The translations under genes and the position numbers were made by a program. Shown here in pieces: positions 2,398 to 20,148 of a stretch of DNA of 20,148 nucleotides (position 1 is the stretch's first letter; every line of letters starts with the position of its first letter). Under the pieces are notes generated by a model. The model was given only the letters and a program-made list of their open reading frames with translations, searched no databases and was not told the DNA's origin. The stretch lies in IMG/VR virus record IMGVR_UViG_2541047958_000001, positions 1-20,148 of that record; one strand, 5' to 3'. Origin of the DNA: a virus (Duplodnaviria > Heunggongvirae > Uroviricota > Caudoviricetes).

Positions 2398-3561
2398 TTA
2401 CACATCATTAGTACCTTCCTTATTTTTTGACTGGGACAAATTTGGGACCGATGGGTTCAGGATCGAGTCTATTTGCCGTGCGTGTTCGGTAAGGTGATTA
2501 GGTGCAAGGTGAGCATATCGACGAACCATTTCGATAGACTCCCAGCCTCCCATTTCCTGTAACACTGACAACGGGACTCCGGCTTGAACCAGCCAACTTG
2601 CCCAGGTGTGTCTCAAGTCGTGAAATCTGAAATCATCAATACCAGCCCGTCTCAGCGCCGCTTTCCAGGCTGTGTTTGCGTCATACCGCATCTTCCTTAC
2701 TGTTGGCGCTTTCGTTCCGTCTGGTTTGGTACAGCTTTCCTTGTACACAAATACCCAACGGTGATGATTCCCGATTTGTTTTTTCAATACGCGACATGCA
2801 GTATCATTCAGCGCAACGCCGATTGCGCGGTTTGATTTACTCTCTTCCGGGTTTATCCATGCCACCCGGCGCTGCATATCTATTTGTTGCCATTCAAGGT
2901 TGATGATGTTCGAGCGTCTTAAGCCTGTTGCCAGTGCAAATTCAACAACAGACTTTAATGGCTCCGGACATTCATCAATCAGCCTTTGTGCTTCATGGGG
3001 CTCCAGCCAGCGGATCCGTTTATTCTTTGGTTGAGGCACTTTAATAATTGGTGCCTTATCCAGCATTTTCCATTCACGCTCTGCGGCTCTTAGTAGGGCT
3101 TTTATAAATGAAAGATGCGTAGCCTTCGTTGCAACAGACGCTGGTTTTGGCGTGTATTCTGGAACAGGTTTCCCTTTTTTTCTGCATGCTTCTTCCCTGA
3201 GTTTCCAGTTTTCCTCATTACGCCGGTTCGTCATTTTCTGCATTGCTGAATAAATTTTTGATTCAGTAATGTCTCTTAGTTGCATTCCTGCGAAATGTTG
3301 AAGCCAGAACCCGATCCGGCTTTTGTCATCGTCCAGTGATTTTTTATGTGCTTTCTCTTCAAGCCACCTGACACACGCTTCCTCGAACGTTATATCAGGT
3401 ATTTCACCAAGTTTGCTGACCCGCCATGCTTCAGCCTTTAGCTTGTCATGGAGTTCTGTCGCCTGCCTTTTGTCCTTTGTTCCAAGAGACTGTTTAAATC
3501 TTTTACCGTTCGGCAATGTGAAACTGGCGTACCATATTTCACCTCTGCGGAAGAGTGACAT
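2398..3561 (-). CDS. int: Phage integrase, P22/lambdoid type (tyrosine recombinase)
   Basis: 387-aa ORF with HDLRH box and RYAH catalytic tyrosine region; closely resembles the P22-family integrase as I recall it; 3' end abuts the tRNA-Thr att core, as expected for attL-int. Confidence 0.92.
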
Positions 3562-8338: not shown

Positions 8339-9202
8339 TCATTTCGCATCTACAATAAATAACCTGTTTATCTGGCCTTTTTTAACAGTAGCCTTTGCGG
8401 TTATAGTGAATACTGCAGATGGATCACCTTTGGTTGATATATATGCACTAAGAGCTCTAATATACGGGTTATTCTTCTTTCCTGCAGCTGGATCGCTAAT
8501 TTCAGCAGTGATTCTCTTTTTTGAGTCATCACCATCTAAAATTATTTTAGCTGTCATATTTTGTGCATCAAATTCTGTAAGAAAAGCACGATACTCACGA
8601 AGACCGAGAACTTCATCATCATCAAGCCTATCAATTTCAGCTTTATCTCTCTCGTTAACTTTTAGAAGGCAGCCGTCAACATTTGTTGCAACACTTATCT
8701 GATCGCAAGTATTACCAATAGGTGATACTGCCTGCCTTACAGAGGGGCGAAGCTCTACAGCCATTCGGTCAATCAAAGAGATCAACTTATCAATGGTTCC
8801 AGCATCCTTGTTTCCTAGTGCCTCTATGGCCTTTTCAAGTGACTGCTGCAAAGCTTTCATTTCATCTTTCTTGTTAGAATTTCTCGCAAAAATATATTGT
8901 AGTATTGCGCCAAGTATAGTTGCGGCGATCCCCGAGAACAACTGGTTCTGAGTGGCGAAGTTAAGAACTGCTTCAAGAGTAAAGCAGTTAGCTTTTGCTT
9001 CGCGTGCGTAAACCTTAACTTCCTGATAATTAATGTATTTACTATATTTTTGTGTAACAGAGAAAGAAGCTGCTGTTGAGAGAACTTTAGAAAAACCCTT
9101 TAGGGATTCTCCTAGGCAGTTCAAATCTATTTCATGATTTAAAGCATCTTTTCCGTCATACCTAAGAGAGATTTTTATATCCTGTAAAGCGTCACAATCC
9201 AT
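8339..9202 (-). CDS. Orphan 287-aa protein of unknown function in the immunity-region moron slot (rexAB-equivalent position)
   Basis: Co-oriented with and 66 bp downstream of cI, followed by its own terminator and then oL/pL; clearly more AT-rich than the flanking phage genes; one central hydrophobic helix ([18 protein letters not shown]) followed by a charged coiled-coil-like segment; no family recognised. Confidence 0.7.
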
Positions 9203-9268: not shown

Positions 9269-9958
9269 TTATCCATGTTTCCTGTACGTCTGGGGCATGC
9301 TCCCAATAACCTTACCGAAGATGAACACCCGGTTCATCTCGTCTTTCTCGATCGGGTCCCACGGTGAGTAGCTCTTGTTATCAGAGATAACCAGCAGCTT
9401 ATCCTTCATCATTTGCAGGCGCTTTACATGGGCTGTGTCGTCGTACAGAAACGCATAGATACCATCACCGTCGAAAGATTTAACCGTGATATCAACGAAC
9501 AGCAGATCACCTGGTTCGATCGTTCCTGACATGCTGTCACCACGCACGTTAATGATGCGGATATTTTCCGCCTTCCTACCATCGAACATGTGACGAGCAT
9601 CGTCAAACGAGTACTCAACCGAGCGTAGAACTTCTACAAACTCACGGTTGATGACTCCCGGCCCAGCACTGACTTCTATATCAAGAACGTCAATCTTGAA
9701 GTATTTGGAATGGCTGACAGTTGATTGTATTGGTTGCACTGTACTGTCTGACATATTTCCAACGCCAGAAGATAACCATTCTGCGCGCACACCCAAAGCG
9801 TTCGCGATCTCCACGATTTTAGTTGTTTGATTAGCTTTCCCTGTTTCGATTTTCTGAATAGCAGCCTGGCTAACCCCGACCAAATCCCCAAGCGCCTTTT
9901 GTGTAAGGCCTCGCGCTAATCTGGCTTCTTTAAGTCTTTCTGAGAGTGTTGTTTTCAT
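9269..9958 (-). CDS. cI: CI-type prophage repressor (HTH_XRE N-domain plus S24 LexA-like autopeptidase C-domain), 229 aa
   Basis: HTH LTQKALGDLVGVSQAAIQKIETGK; Ala-Gly cleavage site in EVSAGPG; Ser nucleophile in RGDSMSGT and Lys in HVKRL. Start taken at ATG 9958 (MKTTLSERL...), because the ORF-track extension to 10024 runs through the operator/promoter region. Confidence 0.85.
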   Translation of the reverse strand: MKTTLSERLKEARLARGLTQKALGDLVGVSQAAIQKIETGKANQTTKIVEIANALGVRAEWLSSGVGNMSDSTVQPIQSTVSHSKYFKIDVLDIEVSAGPGVINREFVEVLRSVEYSFDDARHMFDGRKAENIRIINVRGDSMSGTIEPGDLLFVDITVKSFDGDGIYAFLYDDTAHVKRLQMMKDKLLVISDNKSYSPWDPIEKDEMNRVFIFGKVIGSMPQTYRKHG

Positions 9959-10062
9959 AGTCCAAATGTACAACCAAGGTTTTATTCCATCAAACGAAAA
10001 TGGTTGTTGACTAAAAACAACCATAGTTTTAATCTTGATTCAAATTAACCACGGAGGTTGTT
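9959..10062 (+). promoter_or_regulatory. oR/pR/pRM-like divergent control region
   Basis: Perfect 9-bp-arm inverted repeat ATGGTTGTT-N7-AACAACCAT (10000-10024) overlapping a rightward promoter: -35 TTGACT (10007-10012), 17-nt spacer, -10 TAATCT (10030-10035), then GGAGG SD (10053-10057) 5 nt before the cro ATG. Confidence 0.6.
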
Positions 10063-12927: not shown

Positions 12928-14010
12928 TTAGAACTGGTAAACCATACCTACAGCAACGATATCATCGGTAGCAACGCCAGATGCTTTCGTGAAATCGCTC
13001 TTATCAATCAGGTTGATTTTGTAGTCAACAAAAGTGGACATATTTTTGTTGAAGTAATAGGTTGCACCTACATCAACATATTCAACCAGGTCCTGATCAC
13101 CCCAAACACCCAAGTCTTTTCCTTTAGAATGCAGGTAAGCAACGGATGGACGCAGGCCGAAGTCGAACTGATATTGTGCAACAGCTTCGAAGTTTTGTGC
13201 TTTGTTGGCAATATGGTTATTACCAAAAACAGTCATGTTCTGGGTTTCAGAATAGGTGGTGGCCAGATAGATGTTGTTCGCATCATATTTCAGACCAGCT
13301 GCCCATACTTCAGCATTTTGACCAGAAGCATTCAGACCGTTGTTACCGTAGATAACCTGATTATTAGTGCGATCAGATTTAGCATAGGTTGCACCCACGC
13401 CGAATCCTTCATACTCATAAGTAGTTGAGAAACCGAAACCATCGCCATTAGCTTCAGTTACTTCATTTCGGTCATTTTTGCCCTGATACTGAGCTGCAAA
13501 GTTCAGGCCATCAACCAGACCAAAGAAGTCGTTGTTACGATAAGTTGCAACACCTGTGGTGCGACCAGTCATGAATACATCTGTTTGGGTCCAAGTATCG
13601 CCACCGAATTCTGGCAGAACGTCGGTCCATGCACCAATATCGTATGCTACACCGTAGTTACGGCCATAATCGATGGAGCCGTAGTCACCGAATTTCAGGC
13701 CAGCGAAGGCAAGACGGGTTTTATCTTTGGAGGAACCTTGAGATTCAGCGCGGTTGCCTTTGAATTCATATTCCCACTGACCGAAACCAGTCAGTTGATC
13801 GTTGATTTGGGTTTCACCTTTGAAGCCAAGACGGGCATAAGTAGTATCACCATCATCTGCATCATTAGAGGAGAAGTAGTGCTTAGCATTAACTTTCCCG
13901 TACAGATCCAGCTTGTTACTGTCTTTATTATAAATTTCAGCTGCCTGAGCAGACATCGCCATCAGTACTGATGCAGCTACAGCAGAAATTGCCACTGTTA
14001 ATTTTTTCAT
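12928..14010 (-). CDS. nmpC: General diffusion porin of the OmpC/OmpF/PhoE family (NmpC/Lc-type, phage-borne moron), 360 aa with signal peptide
   Basis: Signal peptide [29 protein letters not shown]; beta-barrel sequence with C-terminal ...VAVGMVYQF; sits between Q and the holin on the opposite strand. Confidence 0.9.
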
Positions 14011-14438
14011 CGTGAGCCCTTTTTTTTGAACTATTATTAAAAAATGATGTCACTGCGCGATAAATATTCATCTAATCAATGTGATTATTTCAAGATGTAA
14101 GTTTTGGTTTCTCGTTTGATTTGTGAAGTAGATCTCTATTTTTATCTGAACTTTTTTCTATCGAATCCTATTCATAGCTCTTGGCTGAATAAAAATAAAT
14201 CTATTAGCCAATTTATATTAACGGTTGTTATTTATAAGTGCTCTATAATTTGAAGGTTCAATTTAAATTGGCTAAAAATAACACTGGAAATTATTTGTTG
14301 GTTATTTGTTGAGATTTGCTTATGTATTTGTAGTGGTGTTTTCAATACTCGGTAGCATTCTCGCAAATATCATTTAGTGGTTTACGTACGTAAAAAATTG
14401 GTTATGCTGTTAAGAGTGGTTACTTCGTCACACAGCTT

Positions 14439-14583: not shown

Positions 14584-14799
14584 ATGAAATCCATGGATAA
14601 GTTAACAACGGGTGTCGCCTATGGCACCTCAGCAGGTAGTGCCGGGTACTGGTTTTTACAGTTGCTCGATAAAGTCACGCCCTCACAGTGGGCGGCAATA
14701 GGTGTGCTGGGTAGTCTGGTATTTGGCCTGCTGACGTACCTGACAAACCTTTATTTCAAGATTAAAGAAGATAAGCGCAAGGCTGCGAGAGGTGAATAA
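14584..14799 (+). CDS. S: Class II holin/antiholin, phage 21 S-type pinholin (71/68 aa dual start)
   Basis: [26 protein letters not shown]...: two start Mets separated by a Lys (dual-start motif), two TM helices, charged C-terminus; GAGGTGG SD. Confidence 0.9.
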
Positions 14800-15296
14800 T
14801 GCCTCCATCATTACGAAAAGCAGTTGCTGCTGCTATTGGTGGCGGAGCAATTGCTATAGCATCAGTGTTAATCACTGGCCCAAGTGGTAACGATGGTCTG
14901 GAAGGTGTCAGCTACATACCATACAAAGATATTGTTGGTGTATGGACTGTATGCCACGGACACACCGGAAAAGACATCATGCTCGGTAAAACGTATACCG
15001 AAGCAGAATGCAAAGCCCTCCTGAATAAAGACCTTGCCACGGTCGCCAGACAAATTAACCCGTACATCAAAGTCGATATACCGGAAACAACGCGCGGCGC
15101 TCTTTACTCGTTCGTCTACAACGTGGGTGCTGGCAATTTCAGAACATCGACGCTTCTTCGCAAAATAAACCAGGGCGATATCAAAGGCGCATGTGATCAG
15201 CTACGTCGCTGGACATACGCTGGAGGTAAGCAATGGAAAGGACTGATGACTCGTCGTGAGATTGAGCGTGAAGTCTGTTTGTGGGGGCAGCAATGA
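14799..15296 (+). CDS. R: SAR endolysin (T4 lysozyme-like muramidase with N-terminal signal-anchor-release domain), phage 21 R-type
   Basis: Weakly hydrophobic Gly/Ala-rich N-terminus [20 protein letters not shown] followed by a GH24 lysozyme fold; start overlaps the holin stop. Confidence 0.9.
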
Positions 15297-15712
15297 GCAG
15301 AGTAACCGCGATTATCTCCGCTCTGATTATCTGCATCATCGTCTGCCTGTTATGGGCTGTTAATCATTACCGTGATAACGCCATCGCCTACAAAGAGCAG
15401 CGCGACAAAGCCGCATCCACTATCGCTGATATGCAGAAGCGTCAACGTGATGTAGCAGAACTCGACGCCAGATACACAAAGGAGCTTGCTGATGCTAACG
15501 CGACTATCGAAAGTCTTCGTGCTGATGTTTCTGCTGGGCGTAAGTGGCTGCGCGTCAAAGCTGTCTGTCCAGACATGCATAAAATCACCGCCGCCTCCGG
15601 CGTGGATGATGGCACCAGCCCCAGACTTACTGACACCGCTCAACGGGATTATTTCACCCTTAGAAAGCGGATTGAAACCAGTGATAAAATGATCCGAGGC
15701 TTGCAGCAATAA
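15293..15712 (+). CDS. Rz: Rz i-spanin
   Basis: ATG at 15293 overlapping the endolysin stop (ATGA); N-terminal TM helix [20 protein letters not shown] then a coiled-coil periplasmic domain. Confidence 0.8.
15486..15692 (+). CDS. Rz1: Rz1 o-spanin (lipoprotein) embedded in Rz in the +1 frame
   Basis: Lipobox LGVSGC after a hydrophobic signal peptide, proline-rich mature part ([18 protein letters not shown]), entirely inside Rz. Confidence 0.7.
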
Positions 15713-16116
15713 ATTCGCACGCAGTGTGTAAGATGAGCAATCTTTGCTAATTAGCCATGAAATAGATAAATATCAGGCCAACGATGATTAGTGCCAGGCA
15801 TCCTAATTGGTCAGAATGGCTGGCATTTGATCGTCTTGCTCTTCTTGCAGTTGATTGGACAGCCCTCTGTCCTCGACTTCCTCTTGGCATTCCTCTCATT
15901 TATTCTCTCTCAACATTGATATTGAACTGACAGATGATAATGATTTCATGAAAGTGGTATCTCGTTGATTTGATTACGCTACATAGTCGCCGGATTTTCG
16001 CATTTATCGGCATCGGGCGGTGCAAAATTGGCATAATCGAAACGTAGAGTTTTTGGCTGACAACAGCATTAGCGGTCACCCGGAGAGTGTTGTGAACATG
16101 TTAATTACATGACGCT

Positions 16117-16437
16117 TTAGATGCATCGACATTTGATGATGCTTGTCAGACCTGTCATTTTCTTTGCTTCATTTTCAACATTGAGGAAGTTGGTTGAGCA
16201 TATTTTTTGATAATCTCCAGTTGTGAATCCTGTTTTATCGATCTTGCGTTTCAAGGGATTAATCGTTTTGCAAGATGCTCTATGGATTCTGGTAAAGCGT
16301 TCGTCAGATTTATTACCTTTACCTCTGGTTCGCTTCAATGCATTGACAACATATCCGTCTGGATTATCGCCAAGCCAATTACGATAGTCTGATTCACTCT
16401 CAGTCTGAAGGTCACTTCTGAATACCTTTATGGACAT
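16117..16437 (-). CDS. Hypothetical 106-aa protein (possibly YbcV-like lysogenic-conversion slot gene)
   Basis: ATG at 16437 with AGGAG SD 7 nt upstream (ORF-track start at 16455 lacks an SD); transcribed opposite to the lysis cassette. Confidence 0.5.
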   Translation of the reverse strand: MSIKVFRSDLQTESESDYRNWLGDNPDGYVVNALKRTRGKGNKSDERFTRIHRASCKTINPLKRKIDKTGFTTGDYQKICSTNFLNVENEAKKMTGLTSIIKCRCI

Positions 16438-16863
16438 GAAGATACTCCTGTGCATTTATGGTACGAAGAAATAGCAAAAGTATTTTTACCGTAAATTGCG
16501 AATCTACAAAAGCAAAACAATGCGTAATATCAGAGTGAATATTCTGCCTTTAATGTGGGTCCTTCTGATGACCTGAGCTCTCACGGGGCGGGAGCGTCGC
16601 GGAAAAAGGCTAGTTTTTGCATTTTTATCGGCCACCATTATCTTTGCATCTTATTGATTATTAATGGTTATTTGTTTTTTGTATGTCGAATTGAGCGGTT
16701 TTTGTTCGACATCGAACGCGTTTTCTTAAAGTTGTTCGCACGATGCATGTTTAAAGCTCTCCGGAGGAAATATGGATCATGAGTTGAAAAACTTGGTGCT
16801 GAATATTAATCAACTGGCGGCTTTAGCCGCTGGCGCATCGAGCAGTGCAGCGAACTGAGCGCG

Positions 16864-17127
16864 GTGAGTGCCTCTTTTGTACTGTCCACGCCGACGGAAA
16901 CGGACGGTGCCGTTTTTCCGGGACGTATCATGCTGGCCAACACCTGCACCTGGACCTATCGCGGTGACGAGTGCGGTTATCACGGTCCGGCGGTCGCGGA
17001 TGAATATGATCAGCCGACGTCCGATATCACGAAGGATAAATGCAGCAAATGCCTGAGCGGCTGTAAGTTTCGCAATAACGTCGGCAACTTTGGCGGCTTC
17101 CTTTCCATTAACAAACTTTCGCAGTGA
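16864..17127 (+). pseudogene. C-terminal remnant of minor tail protein L (about last 80 codons; open frame extends back to about 16810)
   Basis: ...CTWTYRGDECGYHGPAVADEYDQPTSDITKDKCSKCLSGCKFRNNVGNFGGFLSINKLSQ matches the lambda L C-terminus (from memory); no N-terminal part or start with SD. Confidence 0.7.
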
Positions 17128-18481: not shown

Positions 18482-18648
18482 ATGGGTAAAGGCAGCAGTA
18501 AGGGGCATACCCCGCGCGAAGCAAAGGACAACCTGAAGTCCACGCAGTTGCTGAGTGTGATCGATGCCATCAGCGAAGGGCCGGTTGAAGGTCCGGTGGA
18601 TGGATTAAAAAGCGTGCTGCTGAACAGTACACCGGTGCTGGACAGTGA
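18482..18648 (+). pseudogene. N-terminal stub of tail fibre/tip protein J (about 55 codons), fused to unrelated sequence (ORF runs on to 18736)
   Basis: MGKGSSKGHTPREAKDNLKSTQLLSVIDAISEGPVEGPVDGLKSVLLNSTPVLDSE matches the lambda J N-terminus (from memory); lambda J exceeds 1100 aa; homology stops near 18648. Confidence 0.7.
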
Positions 18649-19021
18649 GCGCATGAGTGCATGTCTATGGCGCATGAAAACGCATGAGTCTCATGCACCA
18701 TTTTTGACGCGAAAGCCCTTGTGTGGTGGCTTCTGAGACGATTAATGAGGTGCATGAAAACCAGTCTGTTAAGTGAAGCGGGAAGGCGTGCGGGGCTGCG
18801 CACGTAGCAGGCTTAAATGGTCAATTCTGGCGCAGCTCACGACATTAAGTCAGCCTCAATAGATGTAAGTGTTGGTAGGGGTAATTCGCTACTTTTTTGT
18901 ATCCTAAATTGTATGGTTTGATGCTGATCGTTTCTTCACCGCACCTGCAGAGATATCAATTCAATGTGGACAAAAATGAGTCTGGCTCTTTCCGTATCAC
19001 TAGAATTGCCAGTATTGTTAG

Positions 19022-20148
<1,127 letters not shown>

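Follow-up and report, generated by a model that had tools for sequence, protein, structure and literature searches.

Lambda-like cos sites share a conserved 7-bp cosQ and conserved CG flanks, and positions 7-12 of their cosN are free to vary (PMC4669245; PMC9026076). In O157 Sakai, the terminase-defective prophage Sp4, whose cos is identical to that of a neighbor, was packaged through the terminase of Sp14 (PMC2669165). Here, we analyzed positions 15713-16863 of a 20,148-nucleotide (nt) stretch of viral DNA (IMG/VR record IMGVR_UViG_2541047958_000001, positions 1 to 20,148; the whole stretch is hereafter called the window), which is a defective lambda-like prophage of the Escherichia type. An earlier note, made from the letters of the window, had described this interval as an unexplained kilobase between the lysis cassette and a tail remnant. 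We find that it is very probably a mosaic joint, at which the lysis and packaging modules of a lambda-like prophage meet and into which a deletion has later cut. The interval is ordinary in kind: it consists of the tail of Rz, a moron cassette, a cos site, and a terminase stub with the deletion junction.

The joint became apparent on alignment with the genome of E. coli NT1F31, in which a counterpart of 15713-16825 is present at 99.8% identity. In NT1F31 the counterpart is flanked by the Rz "lysis protein" on one side and by a gene of the DUF1441 family on the other, after which come the large terminase subunit, a small protein, the portal, a ClpP-protease/major-capsid fusion, and then a full set of tail genes. 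This alignment therefore identifies the interval as the normal lysis/packaging joint of this phage type, interrupted at 16825. The earlier note was right to see here the slot of bor-type genes, as the interval occupies the slot between Rz and the terminase genes in which lambda carries bor, also on the opposite strand. The G+C content of the interval is 37-45%, lower than that of the lysis genes (about 50%) and of the tail genes (56-64%). The lack of long open reading frames (ORFs) in DNA of about 40% G+C is not in itself beyond chance; what is striking instead is that coding density is low for a phage late region and that G+C falls between the lysis and tail genes. The right-hand part of the interval contains the following features.

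16557-16563, plus strand: cosQ heptamer GGGTCCT (packaging-termination signal), identical to lambda's at the same place.
16584-16599, plus strand: cosN, with the cohesive end GGGCGGGAGCGT at 16586-16597 and CG on both sides.
16598-16771, plus strand: cosB-type region, between cosN and the ATG of the small-terminase gene (cos bp 187).
16772-16825, plus strand: first 18 codons of a DUF1441-type small-terminase (TerS) gene, identical to the start of the NT1F31 DUF1441 gene, with its native Shine-Dalgarno (SD) sequence GGAGG at 16763-16767.
16825..16826: deletion junction, joining nt 54 of the DUF1441 gene to nt 397 of tail gene L, with a single A at 16825 common to both.
16826-16858, plus strand: ten out-of-frame L codons and a TGA, the end of a chimeric 28-codon ORF, from frame analysis.
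16825-17127, plus strand: remnant of tail gene L, codons 133-232 and the stop, from the Pfam Phage_tail_L match and alignment with the L gene of EC27.

Judged by its motifs, 16557-16771 is a complete lambda-type cos with cosQ, cosN, and a cosB-type region, and the top-strand nick is predicted to fall between 16585 and 16586. In a local alignment, the window sequence ACG GGGCGGGAGCGT CGCGG (16583-16602) fell on ACG GGGCGGCGACCT CGCGG of lambda; the two cohesive ends match at 8 of 12 bases, including all six of the left half, and differ at positions 7, 8, 9, and 11. CG flanks both nick sites in each phage, GGGTCCT lies 22 nt upstream of the 12-nt cohesive end in the window and 23 nt upstream in lambda, and the small-terminase ATG falls at cos bp 187 rather than 191. 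The similarity of cosN, the CG at both nick positions, and the spacing of cosQ are the features by which lambda-like cos sites were recognized in PMC4669245, and all were found here. Among six aligned phage and prophage copies, GGGTCCT and a 38-nt block around cosN were invariant, whereas the 22 nt between cosQ and cosN and the DNA upstream varied.

The deposited left ends of two phages fall at the same place. The deposited genomes of phages cdtI and Tritos both start at the base corresponding to window position 16586. The genome of cdtI begins with 33 nt identical to the window and carries GGGTCCT at the same spacing at its right end; the first of its genes, starting at bp 185, encodes a DUF1441 protein. 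A combined cosQ-cosN pattern occurred once in the window and in 0 of 100 shuffles; it was found in 22 of the 45 loci that we fetched, adjoining the small-terminase gene wherever neighbors were annotated. In a Citrobacter prophage (L009-L011, 3610-3645), the pattern stands with HNH and Terminase_4 packaging genes, which are not of the lambda type. Over 16582-16775, the window is 97.9-98.5% identical to the isolated phages PhiR40_1, PhiR47_1, PhiR55_1, and 606R10, and the cos is therefore intact in sequence. The cosB-type region contains a conserved, IHF-like ATTGAT (16653-16658) and an inverted repeat ATGTCGAA/TTCGACAT (16683-16690 and 16705-16712), with a related copy near 16731-16741. These are candidate IHF and terminase-binding sites.

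The cos site replaces the view of the right-hand stretch as anonymous DNA that might hold promoters, small RNAs (sRNAs), or decayed genes. No ORF of at least 60 amino acids (aa) is contained within 16438-16771, as the earlier note had said. A mechanical 75-aa ORF with a GTG start (16555-16782, plus strand) spans this stretch and cos. In the GenBank record of PhiR40_1 (L012, 1396-1701), a "hypothetical protein" is annotated over cosQ-cosN-cosB and corresponds roughly to the mechanical 75-aa ORF; it is probably an overcall.

We mapped the deletion junction base by base against loci L001 and L002, aligning the L side with the L gene of EC27. The breakpoint that the earlier note had placed near 16800 falls at 16825/16826. 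L nt 397, of a 699-nt gene, is the first base of codon 133, and an illegitimate deletion with 1 nt of microhomology has fused DUF1441 codon 18 out of frame to L codon 133. With NT1F31 as the measure, the deletion spans 13,206 bp. It took away the rest of the DUF1441 gene, 13 whole genes from the large terminase to an M-like tail protein, among them the head genes and most of the tail genes, and codons 1-132 of L. What remains of L matches Phage_tail_L (PF05100) with E = 6.8e-37 at profile positions 119-206 only and is thus a C-terminal remnant. Among all 5426 complete E. coli genomes in our collection, none matched the whole window and none contained its deletion junction; an exact search for the junction in the GTDB species representatives also returned no match.

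The 28-codon ORF at 16772-16858 had been singled out for the GGAGG behind which it starts and for its overlap with the open L frame, and both observations hold, with GGAGG (16763-16767) 4 nt before the ATG. As a gene of its own it does not stand: because the frames differ across the junction, it is a chimera of 18 DUF1441 codons and 10 out-of-frame L codons, and its strong SD is the ribosome-binding site of the terminase gene itself. An intact DUF1441 protein matches PF07278 and the "terminase small subunit" family phrog_141, and in the intact homologue a match to a helix-turn-helix (HTH)-like motif covers residues 11-40 and PF07278 covers residues 10-149, the profile having about 147 positions. 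Because only codons 1-18 remain, the stub has full membership of neither PF07278 nor the HTH match and is a remnant that cannot function. In the late region of a prophage, a strong-SD mini-ORF and a stretch free of ORFs can thus represent a terminase remnant and a packaging site, and not new genes or sRNAs.

With these parts in place, Q-dependent late transcripts would run across the cassette and cos, as they do in lambda, and only the dead 28-codon stub would be translated from them. The prophage would no longer be able to cut or package its own DNA. The orphan cos, going by its near-identity to the cos of isolated phages, would remain a target for the terminase of another phage, co-resident or infecting, whose cosB/TerS specificity is the same, and mobilization would require both such a helper and a second cos at which packaging could end.

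To the left of cos, the interval contains the end of Rz and an accessory cassette on the strand opposite to late transcription, with the following features.

15713-15736, plus strand: former 3' end of Rz, 8 codons and the stop, from alignment with NT1F31 and EC27.
About 15737-16556, minus strand: accessory "moron" cassette, on the strand opposite to late transcription.
15747-15899, minus strand: candidate unannotated 50-aa gene MRGMPRGSRGQRAVQSTARRARRSNASHSDQLGCLALIIVGLIFIYFMAN, with third-position substitutions and open in all copies.
15900-16116, minus strand: 217-nt spacer that separates the 106-aa gene from the 50-codon ORF, holding a non-conserved mechanical 59-aa ORF.
16117-16437, minus strand: 106-aa moron gene, its product identical to RefSeq WP_000025003.1, "hypothetical protein".
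16438-16556, minus strand: 5' region of the 106-aa gene, with the SD sequence AGGAG at 16445-16449, found in the same 54 genomes as the gene.

The left edge of the interval lies where it does on account of a mutation in Rz. Compared with all relatives examined, Rz in the window carries a TAC to TAA nonsense change at 15710-15712 and has lost its last 8 codons, while the RefSeq "lysis protein" of the relatives stops at the position of window 15736. Because the relatives read to 15736 and the window stops at 15712, the first 24 nt of the interval are a disused, untranslated tail of Rz. The match of the window to other prophages stops near 15670, within Rz. Embedded in Rz in another frame is an Rz1-type ORF (15486-15692, plus strand) with a lipobox-like VSGC and a proline-rich tail, resembling an o-spanin.

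The cassette is a rare and mobile unit in E. coli; one lysogen that carries it is ETEC H10407 (NC_017633, 5093661-5094492). Its two halves, 15725-16116 and 16117-16556, were each present in 54 of the 5426 genomes (about 1%), at 97-100% identity and always adjoining Rz. In some genomes the cassette is linked to a DUF1441 TerS gene, in others to a "DNA-packaging protein" of the Nu1/NohD type, and between the two kinds of copies homology breaks in the right half of cosN (16586-16640 compared with L032-L035). This break is the expected mosaic seam, and cos, as the alignments have it, acts as a recombination seam between modules. One copy of the cassette spans the start of the circular record NZ_CP174001.1 (E. 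coli SZQ1, a 43,337-bp "plasmid"; 43097-43337 and 152-591), which has the size of a phage and may represent a circular phage genome, not a plasmid. By analogy with lambda bor, which has a similar placement, the cassette would be expressed from the lysogen. Counting against this, we found neither a convincing sigma-70 promoter for the cassette nor a consensus sigma-70 match within 16438-16556, and promoter and terminator counts were at the level of shuffles. The mapping replaces the "unexplained" kilobase with a precise feature map, in which only the domain family of the 106-aa protein and the 50-codon ORF are new.

Consistent with the earlier note, 15713-16116 contains no ORF of at least 60 aa, the longest having 59 aa (15900-16079, minus strand). 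The stretch gave no match by blastn in distant mode against phages, or by tblastx and blastn against the loci fetched by that stage. The suggestion that a decayed late gene might lie here found only the 24 nt of the Rz tail; instead, 15747-15899 is probably an unannotated small gene, as its pattern of substitutions indicates. We ran a codon-position test on this 50-codon ORF over 15 copies of the cassette (the window, L001-L003, and L032-L042). The frame was open in 15 of 15, and of the nine variable sites, eight were synonymous third-position changes and the ninth gave V40F; we calculate P ~0.003 for at least eight of nine sites falling in any one phase. The ORF ends right at the cassette boundary, its stop codon being 10 nt away from the point where Rz stops in relatives, and a purine-rich tract, GAGAGAGAA, precedes the ATG. 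The predicted 50-aa peptide has an Arg-rich N-terminus and a single C-terminal hydrophobic helix, from which we infer that the ORF may encode a tail-anchored membrane peptide under purifying selection, and so be a candidate addition to the increasing number of small membrane proteins that had been overlooked.

The periodicity could also have arisen by chance or be the relic of a recently dead gene, in which case 15737-16116 would be a long 3' stretch of the 106-aa gene, either untranslated or in decay, and no gene would correspond to the 50-codon ORF. The variable sites number only nine, and several observations that fit such a region weigh against a small gene. A search of 5.8 billion proteins returned no homologue of the 50-aa ORF and tblastn against phages returned none, no family matched it, and in IMG/VR only near-identical copies were found. 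Beside the distant homologues of the 106-aa gene, the ORF has no counterpart, and annotation pipelines have never called it. Moreover, an antisense ORF on the plus strand has the same third codon positions. Upstream and in the same frame lies the 59-aa ORF, interrupted by stops in every copy and frameshifted in EC27, a pattern compatible with a dead gene some 110 codons long. As a gene in its own right, the 59-aa ORF was rejected on the 1-nt deletion that causes this frameshift. Decay or an untranslated region nevertheless explains poorly why eight of nine changes are synonymous while the frame stays open in all copies, why the stop sits at the cassette boundary, and why a purine-rich tract stands before the ATG. 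We therefore consider this alternative unlikely, although it is the one that survives best, and retain the small gene as the probable reading of 15747-15899.

The 106-aa gene is real and conserved, and its product consists of a single domain, here standing alone, that no curated family covers. Its excellent SD, pointed out in the earlier note, is AGGAG (16445-16449), 7 nt before the ATG; an in-frame ATG further upstream would give 112 aa, and RefSeq relatives annotate the 106-aa form. The homology search that the earlier note had proposed for this protein returned 24 homologues at 58-99% identity, nearly all of 105-110 aa and with 35 invariant columns, so that the lack of homologues which the note had named as a point against its reading was not what we found. 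They come from Escherichia/Shigella, Klebsiella, Citrobacter, Leclercia, Raoultella, Pseudescherichia, and Cedecea. In prophages of Raoultella, Citrobacter, and Cedecea, the homologue is again on the opposite strand, with Rz to one side and the small terminase to the other, though the terminase types differ, and in Brenneria a homologue lies next to an integrase in an island. In the Raoultella prophage (L006, 5769-6044), a Tad2-like gene stands beside the homologue in the same slot; the Tad2-like Pfam family is named after an anti-Thoeris protein, and the slot therefore collects defense-related cargo.

A profile search of 1.84 billion representatives extended the family to 247 relatives, each a representative cluster, from many phyla. 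About two-thirds are stand-alone proteins of 90-110 aa, and in the rest the domain is fused to others, usually at the N-terminus. Seven of the 20 longer proteins tested carried HNH or HNH_2, and the other partners with a match were NOV_C, DUF6998, a protein kinase, and, weakly and below threshold, an AAA ATPase. The family is thus widespread and uncurated, and HNH nucleases are frequent fusion partners. Across 28 diverse members, Y18, W21, G28, H52, C56, K78, and C103 were invariant and C105 nearly so, which suggests a metal site of the form H-x3-C...C-x(1-2)-C.

Searches for a named family or fold were negative. The 106-aa protein had no match in Pfam, PHROG, or NCBIfam, and none among the PADLOC-DB anti-phage defense models at E <= 10. 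The AlphaFold (AF2) model is confident (predicted local distance difference test 86.5, predicted template modeling score 0.80), and Foldseek with this model against PDB and BFVD returned no structural relative (E >= 0.4); a sequence-profile search of PDB returned none. A bor-type gene is not what occupies the slot, as the protein matched neither Bor nor any other family and shows no N-terminal hydrophobic signal and no lipobox in its sequence. Identity with DUF6233 was rejected, since that family gave only sub-threshold matches (best E = 0.025, 3 of 28 members) and none for the window protein. Searching the literature by accession (WP_000025003.1) returned nothing.

The conserved H52, C56, C103, and C105 indicate that the product is probably a small zinc-binding protein. 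With low confidence, we suggest that it may be a metal-binding recognition module, most likely for nucleic acid, that would be expressed in the lysogen. Certain data weigh against this view. The proposal of zinc and nucleic-acid binding draws on the conserved His and Cys residues and on the domain fusions, and on these only. Within E. coli, the gene shows six non-synonymous and two synonymous changes, so that constraint on it is not evident there: strains 2 HS-C and 23AR1101 carry G23S, A33T, R53S, and I66N, and 23AR1101 also carries R47C, at a residue that is invariant across genera. Some E. coli copies may thus be decaying.

Taken further, the same counts would make the 106-aa gene a decaying passenger without present function in E. 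coli, as would R47C and R53S at conserved positions and the rarity of the cassette (1% of genomes). This we judge improbable, given that the ORF is intact and the protein identical in most copies, including that of the window, that its 106-aa length and 35 invariant residues have been kept at 58-69% identity across genera, and that it has a strong SD. A functional 106-aa gene remains our reading.

A bolder proposal is that the cassette is an unrecognized two-gene module for lysogenic conversion or phage exclusion, pairing the 106-aa sensor domain with the 50-aa tail-anchored membrane peptide; this is doubtful at best. On this reading, the 106-aa His/Cys protein would be a stand-alone copy of a sensor domain that elsewhere drives HNH nucleases and would act with or alongside the 50-aa peptide. 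In a weaker form, the 50-aa peptide alone may be a new small membrane effector in "non-coding" prophage DNA.

The non-coding stretches might instead encode a regulatory sRNA as their functional content, for example an anti-sRNA of the prophage or the antisense RNA that is paired with a type I toxin. The earlier note had raised the possibility of sRNAs, the coding density is low, and the hydrophobic 50-aa ORF superficially resembles small membrane toxins. Checks with Rfam and by folding gave no sRNA family and no unusually stable RNA fold: no gathering-score match was found in the whole window (best E-value 0.28 in a permissive scan of 15500-17000), and minus-strand RNA of 15700-16130 folded no better than shuffles (z = -1.1). 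The sole terminator-like hairpin (16703-16718) is the cosB inverted repeat, no convincing promoter-terminator pairs were found, and the right-hand stretch is wholly explained by cos. An sRNA is accordingly very improbable as the content of this DNA.

Least probable of all is that the true coding frame is the plus-strand 48-aa ORF (15784-15930), a small gene on the late-transcribed strand, for although it shares its third codon positions with the minus-strand ORF and five of six distinct substitutions were synonymous in the first seven copies compared, it carries a nonsense change (W9*) in EC27, has variable site 15926 on its second codon position, where the change would be non-synonymous, leaves the periodic or conservative sites 15753 and 15782 outside it and inside the minus-strand ORF, and begins with an ATG that no SD precedes.

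From left to right, the window contains two integrases, genes for a CI-type repressor, for replication, and for antiterminator Q, a moron encoding a porin, the lysis genes S, R, Rz, and Rz1 (14584-15712), the interval at 15713-16863, the L remnant, K, I, and a copy of IS5 at the window end. The integrases are two tandem tyrosine-recombinase (Phage_integrase) genes at 1173-2276 and 2398-3561 on the minus strand. A scan of the whole window with ARAGORN gave no tRNA gene; the integrase of the relative MB56 lies directly next to a tRNA-Thr gene. Beside the CI-type repressor (9269-10024) lies a gene for a DUF7946/DUF7947 protein (8339-9202, minus strand), which may be another lysogen-expressed accessory gene. 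The porin moron, of the OmpC/NmpC type, is at 12928-14010 on the minus strand, between Q and the holin gene, and is followed by a region of 26-28% G+C (14000-14400). After tail gene I, 18482-20148 contains an 84-aa ORF without a family match and then an IS5-type transposase ORF that runs to the window end. As nothing else follows I, the tail region has therefore been shortened a second time.

Set against known systems, the cassette resembles lambda bor and the borD/ybcV/ybcW genes of DLP12 in occupying the slot between Rz and cos on the strand opposite to the late genes, in having a G+C content below that of its neighbors, and in its patchy distribution among related prophages. It differs from bor in having no sequence or family relation to Bor and no lipoprotein signal, and from bor-type morons in carrying a second, unannotated small ORF. 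Compared with type I toxin-antitoxin systems, that ORF has its one hydrophobic helix at the C-terminus, behind an Arg-rich N-terminus, and no sRNA was detected with it. The family of the 106-aa protein shares a short "LHRAxC" motif with Pfam DUF6233 and the N-terminal domains of HNH/HNH_2 nucleases, and its domain recurs as the N-terminal module of HNH-family proteins.

The cos site varies at positions 7-12 of the cohesive end, as do those of the lambda-like group that includes cdtI, Gifsy-1, N15, and phi80. Its cosB is unrelated in sequence to the R3-I1-R2-R1 arrangement of lambda and serves a small terminase of the DUF1441 type rather than the Nu1 type, and, unlike the cos of lambda, this cos is orphaned, its terminase genes having been deleted. 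In keeping a cos without terminase or head genes of its own, the window element is like Sp4 of O157 Sakai, DLP12 and Qin of K-12, and the cos-bearing phage-inducible chromosomal islands (PICIs) (PMC2669165; PMC9026076). For Sp4 the helper, Sp14, is known, whereas the window element has no known helper; unlike PICIs, it has no Rpp-type redirecting gene; and in contrast to other terminase-defective prophages with a cos, its cos adjoins a deletion scar rather than an IS insertion. As in the prophage-prophage interaction of O157 Sakai, a defective prophage with such an orphan cos could still be cut, and perhaps mobilized, by a matching helper.

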